Shown in pieces: positions 20,938 through 50,780 of a stretch of 50,780 bases of DNA. The notes under the pieces were generated by a model that worked only from the letters and a program-made list of their open reading frames with translations, ran no database searches and was not told the origin of the DNA. The DNA lies in NCBI GenBank assembly GCA_030600555.1, contig JAUVLW010000003.1:1-50780 (forward strand), in the 5' to 3' direction. The stretch's first letter is position 1; each line of letters opens with the position of its first letter. Made by a program: the position numbers and the translations under genes. The stretch is from Candidatus Aenigmatarchaeota archaeon. Lineage in GTDB: Archaea > Aenigmatarchaeota > Aenigmatarchaeia > QMZS01.

Positions 20938-21546
20938 TTACTTATTATAATAAAAAGAGGTAAAAAAGTTCTCAAATCCCTTTAAAATAACCCCCTCTCG
21001 ATATTTAACATTACTAGGGTCTTTTAATATTTCCATGGATCCCTTCACTGAACCCAACCTCACATTATATTTATACTCAAGTCCAAGCAGTTCAGTTTCA
21101 AGTTTTTTATCTCCAATATAAAAAAAAGTTATTTTGTTTTTAGGTTTTGTTGAAACATCAATAACAGACAGAAATTCCGAATTTAAATTCTCTGCTTTTC
21201 TGATACACTCGCTTATCTGATCTGAATCCGCCACTTTTGAAACTCCTCCTTTAGATAATTCGCCCCCATACAAAATATTTTTCTGCTCTGCATAAAAATT
21301 CAGTTTCCTGTTAATCGCATAATGAACAAAACCCAACAAAGCAAAATCAGAATTATAATTGACTCCCGCAACAATCACATTACCATATTTTTTTAGTTCA
21401 AGTATATTTTTTTTTCTTAGAGATAATACTGCAGAATAAACTCTCTCATAGGAATAACCGCAGTTTTTCTGAATTTCTTTTATGGTTTTTAATTCTTTAT
21501 CTGGAAATAAACTTGCAATGACTTCCAATTCATTACGCGGTAACAT
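20938..21546 (-). CDS. Predicted winged-helix DNA-binding protein (202 aa from the ATG)
   Basis: N-terminus ELEVIASLFPDKELKTIKEIQKNCGYSYERVYSAVLSLRKKNILELKKYG has a wHTH pattern. The track start at 21564 is TTG; the ATG at 21546 is preferred. Sits immediately upstream of minD and divergent from secreted paralog A. Confidence 0.55.
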   Translation of the reverse strand: MLPRNELEVIASLFPDKELKTIKEIQKNCGYSYERVYSAVLSLRKKNILELKKYGNVIVAGVNYNSDFALLGFVHYAINRKLNFYAEQKNILYGGELSKGGVSKVADSDQISECIRKAENLNSEFLSVIDVSTKPKNKITFFYIGDKKLETELLGLEYKYNVRLGSVKGSMEILKDPSNVKYREGVILKGFENFFTSFYYNK

Positions 21547-21560
21547 AACTATAGAACACT

Positions 21561-21576
21561 TCAATATATTTATTGA
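21561..21576. promoter_or_regulatory. Inverted repeat TCAATA-TATT-TATTGA between the wHTH gene and secreted paralog A
   Basis: Read directly. Uses the same half-sites as 22650-22666 and 23782-23798, in the opposite arrangement. Confidence 0.45.
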
Positions 21577-21593
21577 TTTTTCATTAGGATAAC

Positions 21594-21603
21594 CTTATAT
21601 ATA
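21594..21603 (+). promoter_or_regulatory. TATA-like box (CTTATATATA) about 20 nt upstream of the paralog A ATG
   Basis: AT-rich TATA-like element at archaeal spacing, implying a leaderless or near-leaderless mRNA. Confidence 0.35.
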
Positions 21604-21620
21604 CCAACAAATATATTATT

Positions 21621-22598
21621 ATGAAGAACTTCGATAATTATACAACCAATAAATTTAGAACTAAAACTAATAAATCCTATATTTGTCTAACTCTATTTGC
21701 TATATTAACCTTGCTTGTTGCAGGAACTCCTGTAATGGCTGCGGAAAATTCATCAGGCACAATTAATATTACTGTACTGGTATCCGCAAAGACAATAGTT
21801 GTTATTGACCCCGACATTCTTACATGGATAGGCGGTGAATCTGTAAATCCTGGTGAAGAAGGAATTGTAAAAGCAATACAAATAGAAAACATGGGTTCAA
21901 CAAATATCAGCTACCTTTGGGCAAACACCAGCTATGAAGACACATCTCCTTTTGGCACTGGTAATGCTGCAGGGTATGATGCGGGAAATTTTGTGGCAAT
22001 GAGCAAAGCCAATGACACCAATTTCTTCTTTGTTAATCGCGTTGATTACAATGAAACACACCAGGATATTTATTTAAACTTGCCAGCAAATACAGTAAGT
22101 TACGGCAGGATGAGAGATGCAGGCAATGAATATTTCTGGGCTCTTGAATCTGGGGGAGTAAACTGCACAAACGGGACTATTTCCATTGGTGTATTACCTC
22201 ATACAGATAATAGTTCAGGAACAACAGATCTTTCAAATTGCGGGGGTGTGGGTTTAACAGATACAGCCAATGCAGGTTGCAGATCCGGAGATTTAACTGC
22301 GGTTTCTTCAGGAGATTATGAAGGAATTTGGGGCTGGGCTGACATCAACATGGATTACAGTAATAGCTATCATAATTATACAGTTGCCGTGCATTCTGAT
22401 TGCAACATAACAATGTTTTATCACTGGAATAAAGATGCTCCAGGAGCTGACAGTGCAACCAATCCAGAATATTTATCTGAAACAACCCTTTATCCCGGTG
22501 GTGCAGTAATAATGTATGTAAAAGTAAAAGTTCCTTATGGAACCGCAGCGGGTAATGTTGGTGAAGGATTTTTAACAATAACCGCACAATCAACTTAA
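21621..22598 (+). CDS. Secreted sequon-rich protein, paralog A (325 aa)
   Basis: Signal peptide ..LTLLVAGTPVMA|AENSS. Shares with paralog B the motifs IQIENMGSTNISYLW.NTSY..PFGT.N..YDAGNFV, NRVDY, YGRMR..NEYFW, HWNKDA and KVKVPYG..G.V.EGFLTIT. Confidence 0.8.
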   Translation: MKNFDNYTTNKFRTKTNKSYICLTLFAILTLLVAGTPVMAAENSSGTINITVLVSAKTIVVIDPDILTWIGGESVNPGEEGIVKAIQIENMGSTNISYLWANTSYEDTSPFGTGNAAGYDAGNFVAMSKANDTNFFFVNRVDYNETHQDIYLNLPANTVSYGRMRDAGNEYFWALESGGVNCTNGTISIGVLPHTDNSSGTTDLSNCGGVGLTDTANAGCRSGDLTAVSSGDYEGIWGWADINMDYSNSYHNYTVAVHSDCNITMFYHWNKDAPGADSATNPEYLSETTLYPGGAVIMYVKVKVPYGTAAGNVGEGFLTITAQST

Positions 22599-22649
22599 TT
22601 AATTTTATTTTTTATTTAAAATTATTAAAATTCAGTTGATTTATTTTCA

Positions 22650-22666
22650 ATATTGATATTTCAATA
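22650..22666. promoter_or_regulatory. 17-mer ATATTGATATTTCAATA (inverted repeat TATTGA-TATT-TCAATA) upstream of paralog B
   Basis: Identical 17-mer at 23782-23798. Additional TTGAT half-sites at 22636 and 22673. Lies between the T-rich terminator of paralog A and the TATA box of paralog B. Confidence 0.5.
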
Positions 22667-22696
22667 TCTTTATTGATACTTCTGTAAGCTAAAAAC

Positions 22697-22704
22697 TTTA
22701 TATA
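22697..22704 (+). promoter_or_regulatory. TATA box TTTATATA about 21 nt upstream of the paralog B ATG
   Basis: Canonical archaeal TATA-like octamer; the spacing implies a leaderless mRNA. Confidence 0.4.
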
Positions 22705-22724: not shown

Positions 22725-23726
22725 ATGGTATACAAAAATAACAACCTAATAAAAATATCCACAATAATAACCGCACTAGTGATAATAGCAATGACAAATC
22801 CAGCGATGGCTTTAACTGTCAATGATAATGAAACAGCAAACATATCTGTAACAATCTCAACAATAACAATGGTAAACATAGACCCTTATGTTCTTACATG
22901 GAGTGGTCTTAACCCAGGAGATATTGGTAATGCAACTGAAGAAACCACAGGCTACTTTGCAATCCAGATAGAAAATATTGGTTCAAACAATATAACACAT
23001 ATTTGGTTCAATTCAAGTTACCCTTCAAGCCGACCATTTGGAACCGCAAATTCAAGCGCCTATGATGCAGGAAACTTTGTTGTGCTTGCAAGAGAAAATC
23101 TAAGTGAAATTCCAACGGGAGCAACCGCAAGTTATTGCGCAGACCTAAGCAATTCAACTTATGATGAAAGATATGGACGTTATAAATATCCAAACAGAGT
23201 TGAATATCCTGAAGTAAGAACCTTAGTTTACCTCAAAGATGATAACGGGATAATGCCTCCATTAGATAAGGATTACGGTAGATTCAGGTTTGCTAATGAA
23301 GAGTTCTTCTGGATGATAAGCAATGCTACTGATTGCGGAGGAAATGACTTTCTAATTGGTAACGACTCACATACCTCAACGCAAACAGGTACAGTAGATT
23401 TCCAAGGAAGTGATGTTGCTACAGTATCTTTAGTAGCCACTCCTATTGAAGGATGGTGTTACGGAAATATAAGCAGTCACAGTCATCTGGATGGTTATGG
23501 AGTGCTTGTGCAAAATGGAACTTCAGGAGCAGATAGAAAAGTTCAGTTAGTATGGTGGAACAAAGATGCTTTAACAAATGGAATGGTGGGTCACTACTTA
23601 TTTGAAGGAGAGAATTTAGTTCCAGGGCAATCAACAGCAGCATGCATCAAAGTATATGTTCCTTATGGAGTTAACGAAGGTAGTGTTGAAACCGGAATAT
23701 TAACTGTAGTTGTGAATAGCGTATAA
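22725..23726 (+). CDS. Secreted sequon-rich protein, paralog B (333 aa)
   Basis: Signal peptide ..VIIAMTNPAMA|LTVND. Shares the conserved blocks listed for paralog A. Confidence 0.8.
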   Translation: MVYKNNNLIKISTIITALVIIAMTNPAMALTVNDNETANISVTISTITMVNIDPYVLTWSGLNPGDIGNATEETTGYFAIQIENIGSNNITHIWFNSSYPSSRPFGTANSSAYDAGNFVVLARENLSEIPTGATASYCADLSNSTYDERYGRYKYPNRVEYPEVRTLVYLKDDNGIMPPLDKDYGRFRFANEEFFWMISNATDCGGNDFLIGNDSHTSTQTGTVDFQGSDVATVSLVATPIEGWCYGNISSHSHLDGYGVLVQNGTSGADRKVQLVWWNKDALTNGMVGHYLFEGENLVPGQSTAACIKVYVPYGVNEGSVETGILTVVVNSV

Positions 23727-23781: not shown

Positions 23782-23798
23782 ATATTGATATTTCAATA
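23782..23798. promoter_or_regulatory. 17-mer ATATTGATATTTCAATA upstream of the MoxR operon
   Basis: Identical to 22650-22666, and 41 nt upstream of the moxR ATG. Confidence 0.5.
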
Positions 23799-23838: not shown

Positions 23839-24813
23839 ATGAATAAAAACATAGAATTATATAAAAAAAAAATATTCGAAATTAAAAAAGAAATTCATAA
23901 AGGATTTATTGGTCAGGAAGATACAGTAGATGGAATTATTAAATGTTTAATCTGCAATTCTCATGTACTGCTTGAAGGAGTTCCGGGCGTCGCAAAAACC
24001 TTTTTAATTAAATGTTTGTCTGAAACAATAAAAAATTGCAATTTCTCAAGGATTCAATTTACTCCTGACCTTCTTCCAAGCGATATTACCGGAGTTCAAA
24101 TCTACGAAGAATCCAAAGGATTTTATGTTAGAAAAGGTCCTATATTTGTAAATTTTACTCTAGCTGATGAAATCAATAGAGCGCCTCCAAAAGTTCAGGC
24201 CGCTATGCTTCAATGCATGCAGGAAAGGCAGGTGACTATAGGAAGACAAACCTTTGACCTGCCAAAACCATTCTTCGTTCTTGCAACCCAGAACCCTTTG
24301 GAACAACAAGGAGTATACCCTCTAGGTATCGCTTCTGTGGATAGATTTTTATTTAAAATAAAAGTTGGGTATCCTGATAAAGAAGCAGAATTAAAAATTA
24401 TAGACTCAAATTTCGAAACAAAGGGTATTGATCAATATGGAATTAAAAAAATTGTATCGCTTGAAGATCTCTCTGAAATGCAAAAAGAAGTAAAAAAAAT
24501 ATTCATCTCAGAAGAGATAAAAGATTATATTACGCTTCTTATAGATGCAACAAGGAACCCGAAAAAATATAATCTTGAAACCGGAAAATATGTAAAATGG
24601 GGTAGCAGTCCAAGAGCTTCGATATATTTGGGTCTTGCAGCAAAATCAAATGCTTTATTTGATGGAAGAGATTATGTAATCCCAGAAGATGTGCAAGCTA
24701 TTGCAAAAAATGTGTTAAGACACAGGCTTATCTTAAGTTATGAAGGCAAAGCAAAAAATATTGAAAGTGATATTATTATTGATGAAATTTTGGACAAAGT
24801 TGAAATAATATGA
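23839..24813 (+). CDS. MoxR-family AAA+ ATPase, copy 1 (324 aa, intact)
   Basis: Walker A GVPGVAKT, Walker B ADEINRA, sensor ATQNP, AAA_lid region GSSPRASIYL. The usual PLPEAQLDRF motif is altered to PLGIASVDRF. Confidence 0.93.
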   Translation: MNKNIELYKKKIFEIKKEIHKGFIGQEDTVDGIIKCLICNSHVLLEGVPGVAKTFLIKCLSETIKNCNFSRIQFTPDLLPSDITGVQIYEESKGFYVRKGPIFVNFTLADEINRAPPKVQAAMLQCMQERQVTIGRQTFDLPKPFFVLATQNPLEQQGVYPLGIASVDRFLFKIKVGYPDKEAELKIIDSNFETKGIDQYGIKKIVSLEDLSEMQKEVKKIFISEEIKDYITLLIDATRNPKKYNLETGKYVKWGSSPRASIYLGLAAKSNALFDGRDYVIPEDVQAIAKNVLRHRLILSYEGKAKNIESDIIIDEILDKVEII

Positions 24814-25412
24814 ATCATATAGATAAAAAAGATTTGGTTGGGATAAAAAATAAATTTCAGGATTTAAAAAAAGAAGTTCATAAAGGAGTTATTGGTCAGG
24901 AAGAAACTGTTGATGGTATCATTAAATGTTTAATCTGCAACTCGCATGCATTGATTGAAGGAGTTCCTGGCGTCGCAAAAACCCTGCTAATCAAATGTTT
25001 AGCTGAAACAATAAGCGGAGCCAAATTATCAAGAATTCAATTTACTCCTGACCTTCTTCCAAGCGATATTACTGGCGTAGAAATATACGAAAAGAAAAAA
25101 GGTTTTTCAACCGTTTATGGACCCATATTCGCCACTTTGGTAACCGCTGATGAAATCAACAGAGCACCTCCAAAGGTTCAGGCCGCTATGCTTCAATGCA
25201 TGCAGGAAAGGCAGGTGACTATAGGAAGAAATACATTTGACCTGCCAAAACCATTCTTTGTTCTTGCAACCCAGAACCCTTTAGAAACAATGGGTGTTTA
25301 TCCGCTTCCGGAAGCTCAAGTTGATAGATTTTTATTTAAAATAAAAATGGGATATCCCAGCAGGGAAGATGAGAAAAAAATTATCCTAAACAATATAGAT
25401 GTAAAAAAATGA
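24810..25412 (+). CDS. MoxR-family AAA+ ATPase, copy 2, N-terminal ATPase core (split ORF)
   Basis: About 75% identical to copy 1 by eye and keeps the canonical PLPEAQVDRF. Ends at a TGA directly after GTA AAA AAA. Confidence 0.85.
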   Translation: MNHIDKKDLVGIKNKFQDLKKEVHKGVIGQEETVDGIIKCLICNSHALIEGVPGVAKTLLIKCLAETISGAKLSRIQFTPDLLPSDITGVEIYEKKKGFSTVYGPIFATLVTADEINRAPPKVQAAMLQCMQERQVTIGRNTFDLPKPFFVLATQNPLETMGVYPLPEAQVDRFLFKIKMGYPSREDEKKIILNNIDVKK

Positions 25413-25795
25413 GTGATTTCAAAATTGAAAAAATAATAACTATAAAAGAACTATTAAAATATCAGCAACTTCTTCACAAAGTATATAACTCAGAAGAGAT
25501 TAAAAGATACATTTACAATCTGGTGGATTCAACAAGAAATCCAACAAAATATTCAATTGAAACCGGAAAATATATTAGATGCGGCGGAAGCCCAAGAGCT
25601 TCCATATTCTTAGGTATTGCGGCAAAATCAAATGCTCTAATTAATGGAAGGGATTATGTTATTCCAGAAGATGTACAGGCAATTGTAAAAAATGTGTTAA
25701 GACATAGGATAATATTAAATTATGAAGGTAAAGCAAAAAATATTGAAAGCGATGAGATTATCGATGAAATTTTAGATAAAATTGAAATTTTATAA
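25409..25795 (+). CDS. MoxR-family AAA+ ATPase, copy 2, C-terminal lid domain (split ORF)
   Basis: Colinear with residues ~197-324 of copy 1 (GGSPRASIFLGIAAKSNALINGRDYVIPEDVQAIVKNVLRHR). Its ATG overlaps the upstream TGA (ATGA). Confidence 0.8.
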   Translation: MSDFKIEKIITIKELLKYQQLLHKVYNSEEIKRYIYNLVDSTRNPTKYSIETGKYIRCGGSPRASIFLGIAAKSNALINGRDYVIPEDVQAIVKNVLRHRIILNYEGKAKNIESDEIIDEILDKIEIL

Positions 25796-25796
25796 A

Positions 25797-26711
25797 ATGA
25801 AATGGTTTGGCAAATCAGCAGAAATTGAGAAAAACAAAACTGTTACGGAAATTGATGAATTGGTGGAAGAGGTTGACAAAAATGTAATGGGTTTTACAGA
25901 GATATTCAATTTCATACTAAAATATAAAATTCTATTCCAGAGCAGCGGTTTGGAATTTGCAGGATTAAGAGAATATTCTCCGGGAGAAGACGATGCTTCA
26001 AGAATTGACTGGAAATCAAGTTTAAAAGGTCAAAAAATATATGTAAAACAATACGAAGAAGAAAAAAATCTGGACATCTTTATTCTGTTTGACTCTTCCT
26101 CAAGCATGTTATTTGGCACCCAGGAAAAACTAAAAAGTGAATATGCCTCCATAGTTGCAGCAACTATTTCGTTTGCCAGCGTGGAGGTTGGGGATAATAT
26201 TGGATTTGCAATGTTTAACGATAAAATAATAAATTTTCTGGAACCTCTGCAGGACATTTCACAATACTACCACATATTAAATTTGTTGGTTGATAAAAAA
26301 AATTATGGGGGGGGATGCAAAATGGGGGATGCTTTATCCATGGTATTAAATAATATACCGGAAAAAACCATATTATTCATAATTTCTGATTTTATAGGAA
26401 CTGATGATATAGAAGACAAAATAAAAATGTGTGCCGGAAAATTTGATAAAGTTTTTGGAATTGTAGTGCGGGACCCCAGAGATGAATCATTGCCTCCGGA
26501 TTTAGGTTATATTTCTTTTCTGGATCCTTTTTCAAACAAAACAATGACCGTAAACACAGATAAAATCAGGGAGAAATTTGAACAGGAAGCAAAACTACAA
26601 ATAGCAAAACTTGAAAAAATATTTGTGGAATCAGGAGCCAGTTTCATTAAAGTATACACAAATGAATCCTTTGCGGAACCCATAATTAACCACTTGCAAT
26701 TTATGGAATAA
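25797..26711 (+). CDS. DUF58 (VWA-like) protein
   Basis: Hallmark LREYSPGEDDASRIDWKSS plus a MIDAS-like FDSSSSM. ATG at 25797 preferred over the TTG at 25782. Confidence 0.88.
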   Translation: MKWFGKSAEIEKNKTVTEIDELVEEVDKNVMGFTEIFNFILKYKILFQSSGLEFAGLREYSPGEDDASRIDWKSSLKGQKIYVKQYEEEKNLDIFILFDSSSSMLFGTQEKLKSEYASIVAATISFASVEVGDNIGFAMFNDKIINFLEPLQDISQYYHILNLLVDKKNYGGGCKMGDALSMVLNNIPEKTILFIISDFIGTDDIEDKIKMCAGKFDKVFGIVVRDPRDESLPPDLGYISFLDPFSNKTMTVNTDKIREKFEQEAKLQIAKLEKIFVESGASFIKVYTNESFAEPIINHLQFME

Positions 26712-28830: not shown

Positions 28831-29313
28831 ATGAAAGTAAAACTTAGTATTTCACTGGGTGTATTATTGCTGACCTGCTTAATAATAGCCCCATTTATCC
28901 ACGAAATGGTGCATATCTTCACATTTAACTCTCTTTCAGGCAATTATTTTGCGGATATTGCTGTGTCCTCCAGTGTTTACGGTTCCTTTAAGGTCTTATC
29001 CCCTATGAATTTATTCGAATATATTGTGCTTCTTTCAGGAGGCGTCGCTTCAAGCCTAATTCTCGGAGCCTTATTTATCCACCTTGGAAGGAAAAAAGTC
29101 AGCTATATCTCTACAAACTTTGGCATAGGTTTCCTTTTAAACCCTTCTCTTTCAATGCTTACAAAAAATGATATCTCCACATTATTTTCATTCATAGGTC
29201 TAAATTATTTATCTATTTTAATAGGGGTCTGCATACTGGGGGTCTGTCTTTTTGAATTTAATTATTCCACAAAAATCATGATGGCACATAACCAAAATAT
29301 TGCAGCAGCATAA
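28831..29313 (+). CDS. Small polytopic membrane protein with an HExxH motif (putative membrane zinc peptidase, DUF3267-like)
   Basis: FIHEMVHIF sits at the end of TM1, followed by 3-4 further TM segments. Confidence 0.6.
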   Translation: MKVKLSISLGVLLLTCLIIAPFIHEMVHIFTFNSLSGNYFADIAVSSSVYGSFKVLSPMNLFEYIVLLSGGVASSLILGALFIHLGRKKVSYISTNFGIGFLLNPSLSMLTKNDISTLFSFIGLNYLSILIGVCILGVCLFEFNYSTKIMMAHNQNIAAA

Positions 29314-44300: not shown

Positions 44301-44485
44301 ATATTTCCGAAACAGGTTATTGAAATTTTTGTTCCAATTGCAAAATTATCCGCAGTTCCAAAACCAGATTCTACCCTCAGAGTATTATAAGACTGGCTGA
44401 ACACAATTCCAGAACCAAACTGAAGTACAAATACTAAAAACACAATCAGCAAGATAACTGTCGACACTTTTAACTCTGCACGCAT
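32315..44485 (-). CDS. Giant (4056 aa) sequon-rich surface protein with a DUF2341-LamG core and many Ig/FN3-like repeats
   Basis: Single uninterrupted 12.2-kb ORF with an N-terminal TM/signal VSTVILLIVFLVFVLQF. No C-terminal TM. Confidence 0.92.
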   Translation of the reverse strand: MRAELKVSTVILLIVFLVFVLQFGSGIVFSQSYNTLRVESGFGTADNFAIGTKISITCFGNIEVYKDGELKEKSLGTLEYILQESGEYLIKCGDETKIIIVKDVVFVEEPVKENPEIFVKEETKIISEVPAIPIKIVTTVTSEPEILPVTNFSTLSIKTLQPTQKCASSECSLIINSPTKTLVDSAGVHVNFTDVVDFEWNNNSFYISWPNSSLELQTFAIYKGTRYSFNELQNMFPGLEVGAVIDDYNEVYKYGLNISNISSFLAEAFEYVGLELVDVKGIAWDEIKKTEAGIIINDEIHLGFNDLLKDYNLSIVNKSTILIGGVGNKTELWLDPTIQLQTADTENLEDTYVNSRSNRVNTNYGGDTSLSLRDYQARRRRIYIKFNISEIPSGVVIDEAKFCIYLYSNGATSSASVHHVYDYTWDGQTETGITWNNQVCGIGFDDSGDCNLTAEDTQNINAVGWVCWNVANMVDIEYAAVDSNISLVLRTPESASLTADLFCSKESISGSPTGCSVSQRPYLNITYTDSQPPIYSNVIQLPSGNPEYGDSVQCNSTWEDNVDLSAVIFRSNYTGSWENYTPSNLGSVYDYIIPISQLTGGEVVGWNYWANDTAANWNNSMPAQSFTVQKATPTLNLYLNGTDDDVGYYQNDTTNFTVSLSVPGMTVELWTDLTGTMQLWDSGSSPLENLTKLDYSHGIYLIKGNFSGNENYTATEETHYLTITQDPVKPNIIDVSPVNQSFGLGKIVTVQANVTDNIAVDTVLLNLTPPGGSPEIYVMVNNSQDIYQYSFQVAKTGAYYYEIIANDTTGNIQIYDPYIYVHGNATSTVSVNKNSYPLNENVILNLLENKTYDNLENGAVQKKAGLLEPEWIVLTYDNFESGFGSYIDGGGDCSLYTGGTYAHQGSNAGNIRDNSGTSSSFYHTNGLDVDTPDYTSIKIDFWFYALSMDDDEDFWVRYSDDDGSSWDTVADYNHNTEFVNDLFYNETVYINETSYTFSTTSKIRFQCDATGNDDNVYIDEINVSATIGPPPEIEANTTYTNYTEVISGALNELNKIEIIVDVPVYDNSGSTLRGNNNSDLQLELYDGSDWVLIGNFNVTGTGNVSLFTTNLTILESWETEENRDLRIRGINFDYYNSSNIDEINWTGVWVNIYNGSSILNTGQTNISGYLLMQVQTNSSGLWNVVDTVINDTNVSLLRNISAGEYFDIGSLWNANPWNTGSSPSGTYRVYAALTDDNGNVLQGDDGVSIEGNDLFKITVFGTINATPQIVGYSETVLISAEMLDTTANKVYVYIARPGESYTGYEMINISETMYQYNYSNTWIGGEYLYYIWSNNSAGYNSTSEIYPFYVVANAAMYVATVNDTYGPNNQVNLTDISIFNPIWWNSSWSRRKEINLSNAGSTDLINFPVYLNISKESEMLVNCNDVRFIDNSTLMDYEIEYCGDNNLDVWVRIPNLSTGTTTIYMYYGNSNANSAENITGVWDNNYTGVWHLSENGTNVRKDSTSNANNANPGNGVAHLSSAVVDGGDDFDGLDDYLESVNDAGITGNSVRTIEFWLNIDNTDRCGIIGWGEDGSSQHFEIAVRTNHWFLWGWGGGNDWNTGVTPVTDVWTHHAIVHDGTTLRWYVGGSELASGFTHTYDTADSHIYFGIEDDIGSLEYMNGFLDEVRISNTVRSMDWINQTKEMAEYQSSYVDFGEEEEYIIESKLTNTGSYNLTGYLLMRIQQYSGGTWNDYGIPVVDDWVPRTIIPGNSLDISAVWVSNGAWDTDSHDGGLYRVHSSIRNPDSGILTDTNGYNIEATYNFTIISAELLISNVEHENEYTYGVNEYELEDTLEWINITITSKNATALNANISLNILDNSDNKVSWGPDETKSCGTINKDETCEKRFDNSTQGYFIPSDAATGTYDFKWNISLTWDPGGNYVENHSYIFKIHDLKQNVSSVLDPSEIDTGEFTAYNFTINNPFSENLTDVAVKINCPNILGLVCVCEGTTNDYCDLGNISSGSVATFNISTNSSTPAGDYNINATLNYTNPGSEFHSREELQNKILEVRVGGAMDVNITYYPVKITRGNTTDLKGYVINENSSQDALEVVSNWTLPSNWVNTTGNLNKFVGNLSPSELDWNNITVNLLIGAELGQQQVELESTSDNFGAAWKIRYITVHANTSFANIGSNNSDPVRGETIQLSTRLLYDNGSVMVGETVSFRDETASQDIGSDTTDSGGWARANYIILGGASVGTHTINITYLGSETKYTNSRENTTTITVHDVPLIMDISATPQIVGYGYNVTIQVNVTDEEGVDLVRVYITDPDSQTNYYSMTNNTEDIYEYNFTNTWQLGTYIYYIWTNDTAGKTNQSVNHYFYVKANASIKILTEKNSYEPNKMVNLTACGLGSWEDNFSDETKINSSLSSDYDITDGTARLNETAYSTTYDFDSCTTGTDCWAWSVESNNAPPESNPNSEVAATSTDYTAIAISGGTRWQLPDPGVGDRMWIRTQMRLAQNASKITRINFTGEGYGSVDVTSRVYVCNLTANTATLPNCSSWIQVVQQQVTQNPPDTTVEGSLTSGFLDVVNGSGHILWIWGSETTSEYLYVDYVKLDVEYDGYELKGNLTSVPITPTHLAGWDKFFVEATVQTGTEVTYNLLDTSDNSVLCAITSAEASSGYDIHSCASGASSIKVYANMSTTNTSSSPIITNWNVTWNNGSCLSNIGSTDITGYLLMQVYSNVSGDWVVVNTTINETFSRKIISGEALDLAGIWNTISWNTSKETPGSYRIYAVLRDSSGNVLQIDNGSGINGSYEFNIISSSIDLSLQEIKIYDVTGKDTHSDISDLIGNGLNKSFNLYTSKVYRVELIINNDENSSAGWSIQSSDSIFHEYLNDSWTVDGINDIWYSNSTHNFTGGNFSVGKINWNTSLGGSIGVGNNITFYYVVNITLNGEDYGVHFKLETSSLIEEDYSNYHIILYEGDPPVLYNNLYDLSTVDLYRGNSLVVYARWNESINESQVEFNSTTSSFQNYTMTLPSPNPQNWTNYTIDTNSTWLVGEHSVKIYAKDLSYNWNDTLDYLIFTVWGLASLTNSSLDPSVIQPGQSTTMRCRVTDDNSTPISDYTVSFYNSTGLLGTNTTNSTGWAEYSFVDNSLGFENITCNITDPISMYYDASSQDGLVELLETSENQPPNYSNVGPDNGTVVHKNDPTIIYSYWQDNFELCYAILSTNETGVWENKTSYGSPMDLNDTGSWANFTWSNISITPGEIYWKIYANDTFGNLNQTNIFYLNVWGWSEISEHFLNPSTIEPGNSTTMFCKVRDADSSASIFNYTVSFYNSTGLLGTNTTNSTGWAEYSFVDNSLGYENITCNITDASFLYYNASSQNEGKSILDTKTGDTKPPVLYNDIYDLNDTVVWKGESVLVYARWNESINESQAEFNSTTDSFQNYTITLPSLNPQNWTNYTIDTDSTWLVGEHSVKIYTKDQNNNWNDSLPYKNFYVWGKSNLTWNAPTGSVYRGDVTFSCNVTDIYNSGDVANYLVYFYNSTASIGSNTTDENGTAYFTYDISEYPVGSNSFSCKIYDAPSIYYNTSTGIPITRSNTLTVKGLLNTTIAYPAANMVFHRGETIDLNSTTIDENSNSVTPDSVLWHNSTSQIATGEDTNWTIPVDYKLGPETIKVNSSKIYYDDGINNVSIEIWGWSNITWGTPAGGNYSVGTLIDLTCSVKDVNTSDEIENYPVYFYYQNSTEGGWHFISLSTTNLTGIAIVSWDTSGLSADNYTTMCNITHNSTVYYNTTEKNEANATIGLNSSVSNSNFEVSLMLPPSIPGKGDADSNEGYKVGMDRIFVLKANVTCRGGDCGVVQGTIRYNSSGTEPDTAVSVGYATPFYVIDSSNGTAQNPVSCGTLNENESCLLNWTINSTGNLHTLWNLDVLFTGTQSSNNNTNNTKIDISIVLIMSLSNNQLSATVEPSWPSVNKVELAGGPVYVTINENSNDAEGIYIKGSNLTGPSGYSIYVENMSYAFVNNSGVGADITESYQDMVSPAPAGTNQSTYYWINTPQGITTGYYYGYIYIMANATG
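39420..40346 (-). other. DUF2341 + LamG_3 (concanavalin-like) domain region of the 4056-aa protein
   Basis: PIWWNSSWSRRKEINLSN..FPVYLNI..VRFID..DVWVRIPNL..IYMYYGN (DUF2341 pattern). Then VWHLSE..DGLDDYLES..RTIEFWLN..WTHHAIVHDGTTLRWYVGG..GFLDEVRISNTVRSMDWI (LamG_3 pattern). Confidence 0.75.
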
Positions 44486-44573
44486 AATTATCTATGGAAT
44501 GTTTAATTATTGAATGTATGGGGCAATATTGACAAGATATCAGGCTTCAACCTAAATTAATTCGACAGAAAAA

Positions 44574-47500
44574 CTATGTTGTCGAGTTTCCGAGGAAATA
44601 TAAACTGCCCCTATATTCCTGAGCCTCCAGACCCCCGGGAACATTTATCCAGAAAAACATACTTTTATTCTCTCCTGAACTTAAATCTGAATCAATTAAC
44701 TGATAATCCGGGGTTATACTTTGCGAAAGACTAAAATTACTTTCATTATACCAGGTAATATTGCCTATTCCAATCTCATAAGTTATTAAACCATAACCCG
44801 GATTATCCTGAGGTTCTAAATCTGTCCCTTTTATCCACAAATTATCTATTGAATTGGAATTACTGTGCGCCAGAATTGAATAATTTGAATTATTCAAAGC
44901 AGGATTTTGGTCTCCTATAGTCGCCGGAGTTACAACTCCAAAATTTATTTCAGTAAATGAAATCGACATTATCAATATCTTTGTTATTTCAATTTTTGTG
45001 GAATTTGTTATATTTCCTGTTGTTGAAGTATTGAACATAACATCAAATTCCCAGATTGAATTTAAATCACCTGTTGAATTTATTGTCCAGTTCAAGACAC
45101 AAGAATCATTTTCATTTAGAATTCCGCAACTAACAGGATTCTGCGCGCTTCCATTTGAAGAATTTACAACATAGAATGGTGTGTCTGAAGTTGCATTCAC
45201 GGGTTTCCATTCAGAAGAAGATAAATTATATCTCACAGTTCCATTTACATCCCCGCAGTCTCCGCCCCTGCAGGTAACATTTGCTTTCAGAATAAAAACT
45301 TTATTCTGACCAACTTTATATTCTCCACCATTCTCCGCATCGCCTTCCCCGGGAATTGATAAAGGCAACATCAGATAAACTTCCAGTGAAGACGAGCCCA
45401 CTTCAACATCATCCGAAGTATTCAGGATTTCATAGCTTAAAGAAGAACCATTGCAGGTTACATTCCAATCATAAATTCCTGAAGAACCAAAACTGCGGTT
45501 GTATTCATAAAGCGAAGAAGTTTCATTGAAAGTCATATTATCTGTTGAATCAAAAAATTGTATTTCACAATAAACCAGACCTGTGCTGTTTATTGATTCT
45601 CCTGAAGTTCGGTTTGTATAATTCGCAAAAAATGTTATCTGCTCGCCAGCGGACTTTACCAGATTCCCCCCTTCAGGGTCTGTTTCATCCCAAATTGTCA
45701 GATTGCTGTTTGCGCCTGAAGTATAATTTGTGAAATGAGTTATATTAAAGGTCAAGTTGCCCTGTTGGTAAGATTCTATTTTGCAGTCAGAGCAAATTTC
45801 ATTGTCTCTCAGGATAATTGGTGTTTGTTCGTAAGTCAAATTATAAAAAAACAATCTTGCGGATTTATTTAATCTTTGCTCTGTCACAACATCAACAGAA
45901 ATAAAGTTATTAGAAATAGTTATTAAATTATTTAAATTAACGCCCCCGCTAAGATTTATATTTTGAATATATTCTATCTTTCCATCATCCGGATTTTCCA
46001 CAGTAAAATTTTCAATATCTGAAGTGTCATTCACCTGCGATAAATCAGTTGTTTCCCCACCGAAATCAGTTGTAAGAACCACATCAAAATATTTTGTAAG
46101 TGAATTTCCCTGGTTGCTAACATCATCATAACACAAAATACTCCAATTATATCCACATTCAATAAGATTGTTTATATAAAAACTTTGTGTCTGGTTCCTA
46201 ACCACCGTTTCATTTGTTTGATTTGACCCTCCCTGAAATATTAAAGTGCAGTTTGTTATATTAGTGGCATCAGTAACATTATACTCAAAAATAATATTTC
46301 CATCATTATCTCCTGAATTATTTACTGGAGTTATCAAAGTAATGATTGGTCCGGAAATGTCAATTGTTATCTGCCTGTTCTCTGTCTGGTTTATATGATT
46401 TACAGTATCATTAATCCACGCGTAAAAAACATAGGTATCCTCTGATAAACTGGTTTTGTTTTTCCAGTAAAAGTTTCCGTCATTATTGTCAAAAATCTCT
46501 GGTGTTCCATTCCAGTAAAGCAGAACTGCATCTTTGTTCGCATCTGAAGCTGTTATATTTATGAATATCCAATCCCGACCATAAGTATTGTTTGTATCTG
46601 TATTTGGATTGAAGGATATGAAAGGGTTTGTATTGTCGATTGTGAAATTTTCATGGGTTAAATGACTTTCAATATCATTCAGATTATCATCCGCTATTGC
46701 AGTCACATTTATTTTATATATTCCATCAGGAACCAAACTGGTATTAAAATCCATACTCATATCACTATCATCGTTGCTGTAAAAACTGTTGTTGATAGTA
46801 AAATTTATTGAGCCATCAGGATTGCATAGATATAAACTATGATTCACGCTTCCAACTGCATCTGCATCTTTAGCTGTATTAACTCTTATAATCATAACCT
46901 CGCCATGAGTTCCATTTAAATTCATATCTAAACCTGTTACGCTGCTGTTATACCAGCCTATATTCGGACTGGTTATTGGATAACTTACATCCCCGATATC
47001 ATCTGTATAAAACGTGAAATTAGTTAGATTATTTCCCGCTTTATCTTCCACATAAAAACCTAACTGAAACTGATCACCATTTTTTACTGTTGAAAACCAT
47101 ATATCCGGAGTGAATTGCGCCTGATTATAATTAACACCATTATCTACCGTAGTCCATGCAACTTCACTATCCGCAAAACTCACATTTGTTCCTGAAGTCC
47201 CGTTTGCATACCTCACCAGATATATTCCCTTCACAGCAAGGACTGTAGAAATATAATAAATATAATAAGTATCTGTTGCTATAATCCCGTCCCACAATCC
47301 ATTTGTTATAGAATAACAGGAACCGCCGCCATAACTGCTATTTCTTGAAGTATAATAAATATAATCTAAATCGGTTGTTGAAAATGAAGCAATGGATACA
47401 CAGTTAGAAGATAAAGGTGGCTGCAACCCATCGCTTACATTGTAAGAACTGTTGCAATAATAAGTTAATAAATCTTTGTTTGGGGCTCCTGAATACTGTA

Positions 47501-50500
47501 TATTTCTAAATCCGCAAATCGTATAATTCTGCGTTCCCCTCATTACTTCCAAATTCCAGTATTTTATTAATAATGAATTATCCTTATATAACTCATAATC
47601 TTTCTTGAGTTCAGTTTCCATATAACCTCTTGATAAAAATAAAGTGCTTCTAAAAGCTACAGGTTCAATATTCCAACTAAGATTCAAGGATGCCCATGTA
47701 GTGCCATTGGCGAGGGAAAGATAAGGATTTACTAAAGGACCCTTATAAGCGCTAACCGCATAATCATAATTATTTGTGAATATCTCAGAATCATACCATT
47801 TACCCATACCTCTCGAATCCGCCAATAATATTTGCGAGATATTATATTCAGCAGAACTATAATTCTGTGCGTGGTCATTCACAGGAGGTCTTATACTCCA
47901 TAAATTAGGAAGACCAGGAGGAGTCATCCCTTCAAGAGTTCTAGTAATTAAATATCTCGATTGGTTTATTCCAGATTCATCTGTGCAATTTATAATAACC
48001 TCAAATAATCCTGTTGAATTTGCCTCTATATCATTTGGGGTTATGCTTACCAGAATACAGTTTGGAGGTGTTGTATCTATTGTAAGTTCCCTTATTTCTG
48101 ACTGGTTAGTTACTCCATTCACAGTGCAGTTTACATACCATTCATAGAAACCATCATCAAGTTCTGTTGAAGTTATAATTGTTGAGATATCATTTGAAAC
48201 AGAATCATTATTTCCTTTATTGGTGTCATTCAAATACAGAGTACAGTTATAAAAATTCTTGTTTCCTGAAACAGTGAAATTAAAATCTGTTGTGTTATCA
48301 TTTGTCGGGATTTGGTTCTGTGGAGAATTCAAAGAAACGGAAAAAGCCACCAGATCCGACCCTGTTGTAAAATTCCAGATGTCGCTTTTATTTTCATATT
48401 CCCCGTCAGTTGAATTTGCGTACCAGTAATAAATTGTTGTGTAACTCAAACCAGACCACATTACTGTTGCATAGCCTCCGTTTGCTATACCTGTCTGGGT
48501 AATATTTATCTGCTGTCCTGTTGAATTATCCCAAAAAGTTACATTCATCGCATCTCCATTGGGATCTGTTACAGTTACATTTAGAATTACTGAAATTTCC
48601 TGATTTGCTGCGCCATCTGAAGGTAAATTTAGGGTTGGTTTATTTGGGGGATTATTTTCAACTAAAACACTGTCTGTTAATGAAGTTCCGTTTTCATAAC
48701 CGTCGTAAGGAATAACCGTGCAATTCCAGGTTTCTCCATTAGTGGTATTTCCTGAACTCAAAATGTTTGTTGTCTGGTCTGAAGGAATTGTTAAATTCAA
48801 ATTCCCATTTTTATACCATTCATAATAATAATTCTGTGAATCTCCATCTTCATCATTCCAACCCAAAACAGCGCAAGTAAGGTCATTATTTTGAGTTGGT
48901 GAATCCGGGGTTAACTCCACAGTTGTTATTTCAGGAATCTTATTTGGATATGAATTTATAGTTTGTGTTGTTTGAATATAAGAACTGGATGCATCTGTAA
49001 AACCGATAATTATTGTTGTGGACTGGAAAGCGATTCCTGAACAATTCCATGTTGAGTTGAAATAATTTTCTGAAGTTGAATTCGCAATATTTATGCAAGT
49101 TCCACTGGTTGAAGAAATGTTTGTTGCTGTTATATCAGAAAAACCATCAAGATCTACAACTCCCGCAGTTACATCAAAACAATGCCCCGCAGAGCAGTTT
49201 ACAAAAATATTCTGGATTTGTATGCTCGGCGCAGAATTTTGTATTGTTGCAGTATTTGAAGAATTTATCCAGGTCGAATTGTCTTCGCCGTCATTTACTG
49301 CAATAGAACATATAATTGTATCGCCCTTGTCTAGATTGGAAACTGATAAATCCAAAGTATTGGTGGTCTGACCTGACATTAAAACATCTGAATCATACCA
49401 TCGATAATATCTTGCTGATTCTGAATCTCCATCCCCATCGCTGAAAATTCCCCCATCGCAACTCAAAATATCATCTGTCAAAGGGGTTGTATTATTCAAA
49501 GTTGGTTCTGTAACTGCAGGTAGTGAATTAGAAATAGTCACAGATGAAGAATTATATTTTGTTGAATTGTCTTCTCCATCAGCTGCCCAAATCTCGCAAA
49601 TTAACACATCGTCTTTATTATAAGAAATATTTGAAATACTCTGCGTGGTAACACCTTCAATATCATTTACATACCATTGATAATGCCAGTTTATTGAATC
49701 CCCGTCAGCATCTGAAACAGTCCCATTATTACAAGTAACTTGTGAGGTGGTTTTGTAAACTGTTATTGGGTCTAAAGTTGGGTTAACTGTTGTTGGGGGG
49801 GAATTTGAAATTATAACAACAGTTAAATTTGATTTGGTTATATTTTCCGTCCCATCGCTCGCCCATACTTCCACAGTTAAATTATCCCATTTGCTGAAAT
49901 TACCAGAACCTAAAGTTGCTATTAAAGTGTTCGTGTTATTATCTACTGTCTGTGAATGAACTGAACCGACCTTTGAATCATTTATATAAAACTGAACATA
50001 ACCTGTTAAAGTATTTCCTAAATTGGGGTCTGTTATTGTCAAATTAATCAACCAATCGGTATTGGTGTAAAGTAGGCTTGGTGAAGTCGCATTTGCTATT
50101 ATTGCAGGGGGGGTGGTTGAAATATTAACCCTTAATTCAACCCAATCAACAAACCAGTTTACGGTATCTTCACCCCCAGACACGCCATTACCAATTATTC
50201 TTATCTTAGCCGCATTAACCTCCGCAATAGTATCCAGACCTAAAGATTTAACATCCCAACTATCATTTGTATCCTGCGTTGGCGGACCGCTTCCATCTGT
50301 ATAAGACTGAACATTTATCCATGTCGAGCCATTGTATATCTGGATTAAATAATTATCATCCGCCCACAAGCTCTGGTAGTGCCTAAGATGAAGAGTTACA
50401 TTATTTATATCTCCTGTTTGCGTTAAATTAGCCATTGTAAATTCCCACCATTCATAAGTGGCTTTTGTCCATTTCCCGCTTGCATCCGCCCAGGTTCCGG

Positions 50501-50780
50501 TTCCTGAACCATCTGCATTTGATGAAGATGTTAAACTTAAACCACTGGACACCGAATTGCTCTCTGACCATAAACTTTCTACAGGGTCAACAGCCAAATA
50601 CCAAGGTCTTGCTTCTATAAAAATTTTATTAAAATAATCAATTTCAGCAGGACCTATTTCATACAAATAAGGGTGAATTAAAGGGGTCTGAACTGAATAA
50701 GAAACCAAAGAATTATTTGTTAAATTATTCCATTCAAGAATTTTTGCATTATCATCGATTAAAATATTTGCATTTGTATT
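44574..50780 (-). CDS. Second giant surface protein, 5'-partial (at least 2068 aa in the window)
   Basis: The track start at 50708 is a TTG. The frame is open upstream to the window end (..NTNANILIDDNAKILEWNNLTNNSL-VSYSVQ). Contains tandem ~95-aa DxDGD repeats and the same C-terminal module as the 4056-aa protein. Confidence 0.9.
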   Translation of the reverse strand, partial: NTNANILIDDNAKILEWNNLTNNSLVSYSVQTPLIHPYLYEIGPAEIDYFNKIFIEARPWYLAVDPVESLWSESNSVSSGLSLTSSSNADGSGTGTWADASGKWTKATYEWWEFTMANLTQTGDINNVTLHLRHYQSLWADDNYLIQIYNGSTWINVQSYTDGSGPPTQDTNDSWDVKSLGLDTIAEVNAAKIRIIGNGVSGGEDTVNWFVDWVELRVNISTTPPAIIANATSPSLLYTNTDWLINLTITDPNLGNTLTGYVQFYINDSKVGSVHSQTVDNNTNTLIATLGSGNFSKWDNLTVEVWASDGTENITKSNLTVVIISNSPPTTVNPTLDPITVYKTTSQVTCNNGTVSDADGDSINWHYQWYVNDIEGVTTQSISNISYNKDDVLICEIWAADGEDNSTKYNSSSVTISNSLPAVTEPTLNNTTPLTDDILSCDGGIFSDGDGDSESARYYRWYDSDVLMSGQTTNTLDLSVSNLDKGDTIICSIAVNDGEDNSTWINSSNTATIQNSAPSIQIQNIFVNCSAGHCFDVTAGVVDLDGFSDITATNISSTSGTCINIANSTSENYFNSTWNCSGIAFQSTTIIIGFTDASSSYIQTTQTINSYPNKIPEITTVELTPDSPTQNNDLTCAVLGWNDEDGDSQNYYYEWYKNGNLNLTIPSDQTTNILSSGNTTNGETWNCTVIPYDGYENGTSLTDSVLVENNPPNKPTLNLPSDGAANQEISVILNVTVTDPNGDAMNVTFWDNSTGQQINITQTGIANGGYATVMWSGLSYTTIYYWYANSTDGEYENKSDIWNFTTGSDLVAFSVSLNSPQNQIPTNDNTTDFNFTVSGNKNFYNCTLYLNDTNKGNNDSVSNDISTIITSTELDDGFYEWYVNCTVNGVTNQSEIRELTIDTTPPNCILVSITPNDIEANSTGLFEVIINCTDESGINQSRYLITRTLEGMTPPGLPNLWSIRPPVNDHAQNYSSAEYNISQILLADSRGMGKWYDSEIFTNNYDYAVSAYKGPLVNPYLSLANGTTWASLNLSWNIEPVAFRSTLFLSRGYMETELKKDYELYKDNSLLIKYWNLEVMRGTQNYTICGFRNIQYSGAPNKDLLTYYCNSSYNVSDGLQPPLSSNCVSIASFSTTDLDYIYYTSRNSSYGGGSCYSITNGLWDGIIATDTYYIYYISTVLAVKGIYLVRYANGTSGTNVSFADSEVAWTTVDNGVNYNQAQFTPDIWFSTVKNGDQFQLGFYVEDKAGNNLTNFTFYTDDIGDVSYPITSPNIGWYNSSVTGLDMNLNGTHGEVMIIRVNTAKDADAVGSVNHSLYLCNPDGSINFTINNSFYSNDDSDMSMDFNTSLVPDGIYKINVTAIADDNLNDIESHLTHENFTIDNTNPFISFNPNTDTNNTYGRDWIFINITASDANKDAVLLYWNGTPEIFDNNDGNFYWKNKTSLSEDTYVFYAWINDTVNHINQTENRQITIDISGPIITLITPVNNSGDNDGNIIFEYNVTDATNITNCTLIFQGGSNQTNETVVRNQTQSFYINNLIECGYNWSILCYDDVSNQGNSLTKYFDVVLTTDFGGETTDLSQVNDTSDIENFTVENPDDGKIEYIQNINLSGGVNLNNLITISNNFISVDVVTEQRLNKSARLFFYNLTYEQTPIILRDNEICSDCKIESYQQGNLTFNITHFTNYTSGANSNLTIWDETDPEGGNLVKSAGEQITFFANYTNRTSGESINSTGLVYCEIQFFDSTDNMTFNETSSLYEYNRSFGSSGIYDWNVTCNGSSLSYEILNTSDDVEVGSSSLEVYLMLPLSIPGEGDAENGGEYKVGQNKVFILKANVTCRGGDCGDVNGTVRYNLSSSEWKPVNATSDTPFYVVNSSNGSAQNPVSCGILNENDSCVLNWTINSTGDLNSIWEFDVMFNTSTTGNITNSTKIEITKILIMSISFTEINFGVVTPATIGDQNPALNNSNYSILAHSNSNSIDNLWIKGTDLEPQDNPGYGLITYEIGIGNITWYNESNFSLSQSITPDYQLIDSDLSSGENKSMFFWINVPGGLEAQEYRGSLYFLGNSTT

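Follow-up and report, generated by a model that had tools for sequence, protein, structure and literature searches.

A predicted MoxR/VWA-associated surface complex conserved across DPANN archaea

Bat-like modules, which combine a MoxR-class AAA+ ATPase, a DUF58 protein and a membrane protein with a VWA (von Willebrand factor type A) domain, are widespread in bacteria and archaea, but little is known of their substrates. For DPANN archaea physical contact with a host is a necessity, and how they attach at the molecular level is poorly understood. We describe here a gene cluster that bears on both subjects, located in a 50,780-nucleotide stretch of DNA (contig JAUVLW010000003.1 of GenBank assembly GCA_030600555.1, Candidatus Aenigmatarchaeota archaeon; hereafter the window). 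A MoxR-DUF58-VWA module and a putative HExxH metalloprotease lie there between two secreted paralogs and an operon of surface proteins, two of them giants, and from Aenigmatarchaeota to Nanohaloarchaea these genes have stayed neighbors in one and the same convergent arrangement. As judged from its genes, the cluster is predicted to encode a MoxR/VWA-associated surface complex built mostly of uncharacterized families and conserved across DPANN archaea. The reading that we favor, with somewhat more confidence than doubt, is of a conserved DPANN cell-envelope or adhesion system composed of co-inherited sub-modules, in which docked adhesins and strand-donating paralogs would be assembled by the MoxR, VWA and HExxH proteins and placed by a MinD-like ATPase. 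Literature searches on DPANN together with MoxR, DUF58 or von Willebrand returned no published description of this cluster in DPANN archaea.

The bacterial Bat operons (Bacteroides, Leptospira, Borrelia, Mycobacterium) share with the window the gene order MoxR, DUF58, membrane VWA and what reads from the sequence as a BatA-like layout of two N-terminal transmembrane (TM) segments and a VWA domain bearing a metal ion-dependent adhesion site (MIDAS), and the substrate is unknown in both. Unlike these operons, the window carries MoxR duplicated in tandem and lacks BatB, BatC (a tetratricopeptide repeat (TPR) protein), BatD and BatE, with no second VWA or TPR gene found by Pfam. Its module is instead followed by two lineage-specific genes, encoding an asparagine- and lysine-rich (N/K-rich) protein and the HExxH protein, and is syntenic with the secreted paralogs and the surface-protein operon. 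This synteny gives candidate clients for the module.

A second point of comparison is the archaeal secretion or membrane-remodeling complex that Makarova et al. (2015) predicted around arCOG01314/DUF4350 (PMC5898192). That complex, also a comparative-genomic prediction, likewise combines a MoxR/GvpN-type ATPase, a vWA protein and membrane-anchored, immunoglobulin (Ig)-like 'S-layer-like' proteins (PMC5898192). However, no window protein matches PF14258 (DUF4350) or PF07760 (DUF1616), and the DUF4350 complex, which is found in euryarchaea rather than DPANN, has no DUF58 gene and neither the paralog family nor the C-terminal module family described below.

The secreted paralogs invite comparison with donor-strand filaments. 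In TasA fibers, Sulfolobus threads, Pyrodictium cannulae, bundling pili and tafi, an amphipathic strand that follows the cleavage site and is unplaced in the monomer is the signature of donor-strand assembly (PMC9674648, PMC9715654, PMC12518558, PMC12337348, PMC11821415). The window resembles these systems in encoding small, secreted tandem paralogs, predicted to be glycosylated and beta-rich, with a conserved putative N-terminal strand right after the signal-peptide cleavage site, in lacking type IV pilus machinery and, as with TafC and TafF of tafi, in encoding a large laminin-G-bearing protein together with a protein that has a C-terminal TM anchor. In contrast to the known subunits, the window paralogs are roughly double the usual size (~300 aa), no SipW/TafD-type dedicated signal peptidase is encoded alongside them, and neither sequence nor fold gives a significant match to any of these filaments or places the paralogs within a known donor-strand subunit family. 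The donor-strand systems for their part have no MoxR/DUF58/VWA genes.

Giant surface proteins of DPANN archaea, such as the SPEARE proteins of Nanohaloarchaeota, are very large, repeat-rich and secreted, belong to episymbiotic archaea with small genomes, and are thought to mediate host contact. The window giants differ from these in being defined by a C-terminal tandem-Ig module that also occurs on ~450-aa proteins, and in being paired with a dedicated small membrane protein. A link to the altiarchaeal hami was considered and set apart on description, the published hamus subunit being a protein of 97 kDa whose gene has other surroundings (PMC4460559).

Gene order and its conservation

The cluster occupies the right-hand part of the window and comprises the following features.

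19997-20929, minus strand: MinD/FleN-like P-loop ATPase (Pfam CbiA, ParA) with an N-terminal extension of ~55 aa, 8 nt downstream of the next gene listed
20938-21546, minus strand: putative winged helix-turn-helix (wHTH) transcription factor, with an N-terminal BlaI-like winged helix (profile match) and a ~135-aa C-terminal domain of unknown type
21561-21586: operator-like array 1, TCAATA-N4-TATTGA-N4-TCATTA, in the promoter region shared divergently by the wHTH gene and paralog A
21621-22598, plus strand: secreted paralog A, 325 aa, with Sec-type signal peptide, amphipathic N-terminal strand and predicted all-beta glycoprotein body
22647-22676: operator-like array 2, (TCAATA)TATTGA-N4-TCAATA-N4-TATTGA, before paralog B
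22725-23726, plus strand: secreted paralog B, 333 aa
23783-23798: operator-like site 3, TATTGA-N4-TCAATA, upstream of MoxR1
23839-24813, plus strand: MoxR1, MoxR-class AAA+ ATPase, 324 aa (AAA_3, AAA_lid_2)
24810-25795, plus strand: MoxR2, read as two open reading frames (ORFs; 24810-25412 and 25409-25795) across a -1 frameshift
25782-26711, plus strand: DUF58 protein (PF01882), VWA-like, with a DSSSS motif and without a TM segment
26722-27675, plus strand: BatA-like membrane VWA protein (VWA_2)
27700-28758, plus strand: N/K-rich protein without a TM segment or database family
28831-29313, plus strand: small polytopic membrane protein, putative zinc metalloprotease (HExxH and other conserved residues)
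29276-31504, minus strand: 742-aa surface glycoprotein with signal peptide, beta-rich domains, PEPQ linker and two C-terminal TM segments
31517-32311, minus strand: 264-aa single-pass membrane protein with signal peptide, one Ig-like domain of ~150 aa, variable linker, C-terminal TM segment and basic tail
32315-44485, minus strand: 4056-aa giant with N-terminal signal/anchor, many Ig-like repeats, DUF2341 and Laminin_G_3 (residues 1422-1679) and the C-terminal module
44574-50780, minus strand: second giant of at least 2068 aa, truncated N-terminally where the window ends, with the same C-terminal module (44574-45395)

The ORF map agrees with the original prediction, made from the sequence alone, on positions and strands, on the gaps of 88, 3 and 12 nt within the minus-strand block, and on the 38-nt overlap of the convergent 3' ends of the HExxH and 742-aa genes (29276-29313). 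The spacing of 0-70 nt that it gave for the plus-strand genes holds only from MoxR through the HExxH gene (-14 to 72 nt) and not for the paralog genes, where the gaps are 126 and 112 nt; the paralog genes have their own promoter regions. The frame of the second giant contains zero stop codons and stays open to the window end. The density of N-x-S/T sequons is 4-6 per 100 aa in the paralogs, 742-aa protein and giants and at most 1 in MoxR and DUF58. Together with the hydrophobic segments, it places the first group on the predicted extracellular side and MoxR and DUF58 on the predicted cytoplasmic side. Pfam, NCBIfam and PDB-sequence searches returned no family for the paralogs, the N/K domain, the 264-aa and 742-aa proteins or the extra families described below. 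The window also carries L7Ae, S7 and RpoL genes, which mark it as archaeal, is AT-rich (26-38% G+C), and contains genes whose closest relatives are in metagenome-assembled genomes (MAGs) labeled Aenigmatarchaeota. A scan with a sigma-70 promoter and terminator model showed no enrichment, this bacterial model being uninformative for an archaeon.

Conservation of the combination of paralogs, MoxR/DUF58/VWA genes and giants in related MAGs had been set beforehand as a test of the original prediction, and the combination recurs in several DPANN lineages. The recurrent order is paralogs, one or two MoxR genes, DUF58, VWA, N/K and HExxH, then convergent genes for the 742-aa, 264-aa and module-bearing proteins. 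We refer to the related loci compared with the window by L-numbers. The order is found among the 23 loci of a scan seeded with the C-terminal module (L007-L009, L011-L013) and among loci seeded with the paralogs (L003, L005, L031, L033, L034, L044, L047, L048, L051, L054, L059-L063, L066), which carry the lineage labels Aenigmatarchaeota, Altiarchaeota, Micrarchaeota and Nanohaloarchaea. A second paralog-seeded scan added 36 further loci (Aenigmat-, Alti-, Woese- and Micrarchaeota, Nanohaloarchaea and 'Nanobdellati'); MoxR lies inside the locus in 22 of these as judged by hidden Markov models of the cluster's own families, the remainder being mostly short contigs. The Nanohaloarchaea loci (L060-L063, L066) repeat the whole convergent architecture.

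Protein identities across these syntenic loci are 25-60%, identity to the window falling to 25-45%, and all parts are retained despite inverted sub-blocks (L013, L051) or relocation (L006). That the blocks stay together at such low identity, through inversions and relocations, indicates that they are functionally linked, and the proposal of a single functionally linked unit is thus strongly supported by synteny. An unbiased clustering of all ORFs from the first 28 non-duplicate loci and the window ranked the families as C-terminal module (23 loci), 264-aa protein (17), paralog (13), MinD (12), MoxR (11), N/K protein, HExxH protein and 742-aa protein (10 each), and DUF58 and VWA (9 each). The 742-aa homologues are convergent to the HExxH gene in 10 loci. 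Conservation from Aenigmatarchaeota to Nanohaloarchaea of mostly uncharacterized secreted or membrane-anchored families, accompanied by MinD and MoxR ATPases, makes the cluster a strong candidate for a DPANN attachment or envelope apparatus. Some lineages with the cluster have cultivated representatives, so that the cluster, should it be present in those strains, could be studied directly; among Nanohaloarchaea, a scan for cultured relatives returned MAGs only.

Surface proteins and their regulation

Pfam identifies Laminin_G_3, DUF2341 and Big_3_5 domains in the 4056-aa giant and detects no protease or nuclease domain in either giant. As first proposed, the two giants have in common a conserved C-terminal module of ~260 aa (47% identity, blastp), which in the 4056-aa protein forms the last ~270 aa (32315-33136). 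An AlphaFold2 (AF2) model of the module, built from a 28-sequence alignment, has a mean predicted local distance difference test (pLDDT) score of 88.1 and consists of two tandem Ig-like sandwiches. This model has 74 PDB matches at E<1e-3, which include RbmA, fimbrial (pilus) chaperones, integrin legs and transglutaminase C-domains. The module is always found at the extreme C-terminus, on proteins ranging from ~380 to >4000 aa, some of only ~450 aa. Since it is also carried by small proteins, giant size is a lineage-specific elaboration.

Neither giant has a C-terminal hydrophobic segment, in keeping with the earlier description of them as lacking a C-terminal anchor. The 264-aa and 742-aa proteins do have a C-terminal TM segment, and the 264-aa gene follows the module-bearing gene in 17 of the 23 loci, the tightest pair in the cluster. 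The giants thus probably have an anchor in trans, namely the 264-aa protein, which had been overlooked. The pairing of module and 264-aa protein provides a better-supported bridge between the parts of the cluster than the resemblance between giants and paralogs considered below. The pairing of a module with a small anchor suggests a general way for archaea to display giant proteins that have no anchor of their own. In the C-terminal part of the 264-aa protein (31517-31660) and in its L007-L012 homologues, the TM segment and basic tail are preceded, at a distance of 13-20 residues, by an [LIV]P[TV]G motif. This motif, which recalls sorting signals, is present in the Aenigmat- and Altiarchaeota members and is not conserved in more distant ones.

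The two small secreted proteins are paralogs, as had been proposed (32% identity over the full length, E 6e-40, blastp), and occur as tandem copies, 2-4 per locus. An exhaustive profile search gathered the family into 339 clusters, which consist almost entirely of proteins that stand alone and measure 290-380 aa, and did not find the family as a module inside giants. The paralogs are single-domain and cysteine-bearing, with 3.6-4 sequons per 100 aa and Sec signals in which a hydrophobic core precedes an AxA-type site, as in Sec class I and not class III signal peptides. The AF2 model of paralog A (pLDDT 89.5) shows one larger all-beta domain. Just after the predicted cleavage site, residues 47-62 have the pattern of an amphipathic strand that is conserved like the core, with alternating positions 48, 50, 52 and 54 being 98-100% hydrophobic. 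AF2 models this segment as coil at a pLDDT of ~62-65 and leaves it unplaced in the monomer. These properties are compatible with a donor strand in the paralogs, and are not proof of one.

Searches for relatives of the paralogs gave little. Foldseek comparison of the model with PDB and BFVD found zero matches at E<1e-3. Its top match, the TasA fiber 8aur_A, is non-significant (E 0.017, probability 0.51, TM-score 0.21-0.27), and FimA is also among the weak best structure matches. A Pfam search over 45 family members found no family, and among PDB sequences the family profile matches a single entry, an 'S-layer protein', without significance (E 0.1).

At the left border of the cluster, the calls of a wHTH protein and a MinD-like ATPase fared differently. 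The MinD-like call is supported by Pfam CbiA (9e-17) and ParA matches, with NCBIfam minD_arch (TIGR01969) at 186 bits against a cut-off of 201.75. The wHTH protein, whose ORF opens at TTG 21564 with a likely start at ATG 21546, has no Pfam match, and the call is weakly supported by a profile of four homologues that aligns with the BlaI winged helix (1p6r) over residues 5-67 at E 0.0047. In L001, L030 and L031, too, a homologue of the wHTH gene is found upstream of paralog A in divergent orientation.

The same inverted repeat does precede all three plus-strand units, as originally described, at 21561-21586, 22647-22676 and 23783-23798, and it is enriched over shuffled sequence (3 found against 0.10 expected; 7 against 0.38). 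Array 1 ends 8 nt before the TATA-like box TTATATATA (21595-21603) of paralog A. The core of array 2, TATTGA-N4-TCAATA-N4-TATTGA, spans 22651-22676, a leading TCAATA extending its start to 22647, and lies ~20 nt upstream of the TTTATATA box of paralog B. The arrays abut the region of the TFB-recognition element (BRE) and TATA box. Array 1 is found at the same place in L031, L030 and L001, and array 2 is kept in L030 (exactly), L001, L031 and L007; site 3 is present in the close relatives L031 and L007 and absent from L001 and L030. All four genomes with the wHTH gene (the window, L031, L001 and L030), whose proteins are only 43-57% identical, keep 10-bp-phased arrays of three half-sites immediately ahead of the TATA-like boxes of both paralog genes. 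From this we infer a small regulon that would comprise both paralog genes together with the divergent unit of wHTH and MinD genes and, in the window, the MoxR operon as well.

A fourth operator before the 4056-aa gene was considered and rejected: the 88-nt gap at 44486-44573 holds two TCAATA half-sites, one of them in CAATATTG, which lie outside an N4 array and are not kept in L010. Likewise set aside was the idea that the wHTH and HExxH proteins pair in the manner of BlaI and BlaR1, as the predicted HExxH active site faces outward and the HExxH gene is also found in loci without this wHTH gene; no M56 protein of the BlaR1/MecR1 sensor-protease type is present. Small ORFs of 73-82 aa occur among or after the paralog genes in some loci (L003:8566-8814, L003:12065-12289, L005:12102-12323, L006:12163-12399). 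The 200-aa wHTH gene is missing from these loci, weak HTH matches are seen for both L003 copies, and the small ORFs may encode alternative regulators.

The MoxR, DUF58, VWA, N/K and HExxH genes

The assignments of MoxR, DUF58 and VWA proteins were upheld by Pfam. The two MoxR copies of the window, which are 76% identical to each other, match AAA_3 at 2.2e-56 and 9.1e-58 and AAA_lid_2 at 4e-19 and 2.5e-19, and tandem MoxR pairs are common among the related loci. The second copy had been described as a split MoxR. This description does not stand, the break being a -1 frameshift in a run of seven A at 25401-25407. In the break region gtaaaaaaatgag (25399-25411), an A_AAA_AAA heptamer directly precedes the TGA stop, and an extra A, or a -1 slip, restores a full-length MoxR2 with the sequence DVKKMSDFKI, which aligns with L031 and L008. 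The gene is intact at 328 aa in L031, a relative whose paralog A is 87% identical, and is in frame in L008, where an apparent split is a run of N; the split as a conserved feature, or as programmed frameshifting, was rejected on these grounds. Since one extra A restores the frame and the gene is intact in a close relative, the break is a homopolymer error or a recent lesion and not a designed split. L007, a relative of ~87% identity, has a single MoxR gene (7995-9092) where the window and L031 have two, and with the window copies 76% identical the tandem pair seems liable to recombine or be lost. In L006 two KaiC/RecA-like ATPase genes (13445-14911) are inserted between the two MoxR genes, and L003 has another KaiC-like gene beside MinD (3895-4686).

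The DUF58 gene (PF01882, 1.6e-40) overlaps the end of MoxR2 and encodes a protein without TM segments that is predicted to be cytoplasmic. The VWA protein matches VWA_2 (9e-19) and VWA in Pfam. Its resemblance to BatA is below threshold, with an N-terminal match to PF07584 BatA at 1.2e-3 (19.7 bits, cut-off 25.9) and a match to NCBIfam VWA_BatA_Lepto at 1.5e-22 (80 bits, cut-off 380). It has two N-terminal TM segments flanking a K/R-rich loop, then the VWA domain, in which a full MIDAS motif (DTSSS...T...D) can be read, and a C-terminal TM segment. By the positive-inside rule, the K/R-rich loop between the first and second TM segments suggests that the VWA domain faces outward.

The N/K-rich protein (11.6% N, 17.6% K) has a variable low-complexity N-terminal part and a helical C-terminal domain of ~100 aa (residues ~200-300) that is conserved in 10 loci, and it has no match in Pfam, NCBIfam or PDB. 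As it lacks a hydrophobic segment, it is probably cytoplasmic, despite its 2.6 sequons per 100 aa. A resemblance of its C-terminal domain to DUF4129 was considered, was not confirmed and was dropped.

The HExxH motif noted in the small membrane protein is present and invariant in 10 homologues. Among these, P21, H24, E25, H28, G71, F101, D114 and G132 are invariant and P105 nearly so. The position of HExxH at the outer end of the first TM segment, together with the distal Asp114, fits the residue pattern of site-2-protease-like/M50B proteins, and the protein as a whole fits a minimal membrane zinc protease with a predicted outward-facing site. DUF3267 is matched by 1 of the 10 members.

Proposed mechanism, alternatives and neighboring genes

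We propose the following mechanism for the envelope or adhesion system. The giants, represented in other lineages by small proteins, would be Sec-exported, heavily glycosylated adhesins without their own anchor, and would be held at the membrane when their C-terminal tandem-Ig module docks with the 264-aa protein and, probably, with the 742-aa protein and its two TM segments as well. The ~325-aa beta-rich paralogs would be the abundant subunits that make up a filament or lattice, joined in donor-strand fashion by their N-terminal strand, and their expression would be controlled by the BlaI-like wHTH factor through the 10-bp-phased TCAATA/TATTGA arrays. MoxR AAA+ ATPases act with VWA partners in remodeling dedicated targets (PMC9976466, PMC13036017). 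Here, cytoplasmic MoxR hexamers with a DUF58 adaptor may act on the BatA-like membrane protein, whose outward, MIDAS-bearing VWA domain would grip an extracellular partner. The outward-facing HExxH protease may trim or release components, the N/K-rich protein may serve as a cytoplasmic scaffold, and the MinD-like ATPase may position the structure on the cell.

A number of observations weigh against this proposal. The MoxR block is missing from L016-L025, where the module, the 264-aa gene, MinD and a paralog occur, and it is therefore accessory rather than essential. Five families that accompany the system elsewhere, this set of loci included (F817, F445, F192, F261 and F332), are absent from the window, so the unit here is incomplete or is completed elsewhere in the genome. 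Docking of the module on the 264-aa protein and donor-strand polymerization of the paralogs are suggested by gene order and sequence pattern alone, and the paralog fold is without a significant structural neighbor, leaving a role as filament subunit unsupported by homology. The predicted topology of the VWA protein is derived solely from the positive-inside rule. Finally, the HExxH protein scores 21.4 bits against PF13398 (Peptidase_M50B-like), where the cut-off is 26, and a match to this family is seen in no more than 2 of 10 members.

A bolder version of the proposal, to which we give limited credence, is that the cluster might specify an undescribed DPANN-wide surface organelle, a filament or adhesion apparatus that relies on neither type IV pili nor chaperone-usher systems, with the paralogs as strand-donating subunits of a new fold, with giant or small adhesins docked on dedicated membrane anchors through tandem-Ig modules, and with its assembly or tension state under transmembrane control by MoxR-DUF58-VWA. 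Were this true, it would provide the first defined substrate for Bat-like modules.

Unlikely, though the most durable of the alternatives, is that the paralogs are an S-layer-like lattice, matrix proteins or cargo, and that the MoxR/DUF58/VWA/HExxH genes form a general, Bat-like module of envelope homeostasis that is merely co-regulated with them. Bacterial Bat-like modules give pleiotropic envelope and stress phenotypes (PMC3557215, PMC5700661), and the paralogs are single-domain, glycosylated and cysteine-bearing like many archaeal envelope proteins, their sole PDB sequence match being the non-significant S-layer hit already mentioned. The paralogs are, however, small for S-layer proteins, at ~300 aa and 2-4 copies per locus. 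Moreover, the genes keep a fixed order across phyla, and the N/K and HExxH families, both lineage-specific, are found only with this module, which argues for a dedicated rather than a general role.

Somewhat more doubtful is the model of the original prediction, in which the paralogs form a filament that is tipped or decorated by the giants, whose C-terminal module mimics the N-terminal part of the paralogs and inserts into it. The conserved N-terminal strand of the paralogs and their weak best matches to TasA and FimA would suit such a filament, as would the laminin-G-like domain of the 4056-aa giant, a domain also found in the haloarchaeal tafi tip subunit TafC (PMC11821415). The resemblance that was to connect giants and paralogs, claimed for the last ~150 aa of the giants and the N-terminal part of the paralogs, has no support, though. 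Blastp of the giant C-terminus against the paralogs, as whole proteins and as 150-aa fragments, found nothing at 1e-3, and hhalign, run on whole and sliced profiles, gave no significant match, with a probability of 0.9% for the C-terminal half of the module against the paralog N-terminal part. A weak hhalign signal (probability 16-31%) joins instead the C-terminal ends, at the last beta-hairpin, of both families and looks like a generic beta-sandwich end. The two AF2 models also lie in different fold neighborhoods, with two tandem Ig-like sandwiches in the module and a single larger beta domain in the paralog; the paralog profile finds almost only stand-alone proteins; and the constant neighbor of the module is the 264-aa membrane protein and not the paralog. 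With no detectable similarity between giant C-terminus and paralog N-terminus, the idea that the giants join a paralog filament through a shared module is not supported.

It is very improbable that chance has brought together an operon of Bat-like type, one for adhesins and two genes for secreted proteins that have no functional link. The cluster does comprise at least five transcription units on two strands, and some loci with the other parts have no MoxR block, but the co-location is seen in more than 20 loci of several phyla, at low identity, and has survived inversions and translocations. Least probable of all is a MoxR-vWA conflict or defense system or a type IV pilus-related locus: the bpMoxR model of Pfam matches both MoxR copies at 47-50 bits, and a connection with archaeal type IV pilus loci has been drawn for MinD/FleN and KaiC-like ATPases and for MoxR/vWA pairs (PMC4858521), but AAA_3 scores far higher at ~190 bits, no beta-propeller or effector gene is present, Pfam finds neither a PilB/FlaI ATPase nor TadC/FlaJ nor a prepilin peptidase in the window or the annotated related loci, the signal peptides are of Sec class I and not class III, and the cluster holds a stable chromosomal position beside a GDE_C gene in four genomes.

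Most of the five families that accompany the system elsewhere have a signal peptide and a C-terminal TM segment. F332, F192, F261 and F817 often form one block next to MinD, divergent from the paralogs. The extra families are seen at L003, L004, L006, L017, L020, L022, L024 and L060-L063 (for example L061:3991-9900). F817 has a CarboxypepD_reg domain, and F332 shares a domain with the 742-aa protein.

Directly to the left of the cluster lie glycogen-type genes (13685-19870) encoding a GT4/GT5 synthase-like protein, GH15, a major facilitator superfamily (MFS) transporter and GDE_C. The GDE_C neighbor is conserved in L001, L030 and L031, indicating that the chromosomal position of the cluster is stable. 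At the left end of the window, where G+C content is 26-28% over positions 1-4000, a 725-aa ORF (1077-3254) without a Pfam match is followed by a Schlafen/AlbA_2-HATPase-wHTH gene and then by a type I restriction-modification HsdM gene, and positions 1-7421 may be a defense or foreign island. In the Aenigmatarchaeota relative L030, an IS605-type OrfB/TnpB gene and a Y1 transposase fragment (L030:19-1400) lie a few kb from the cluster.

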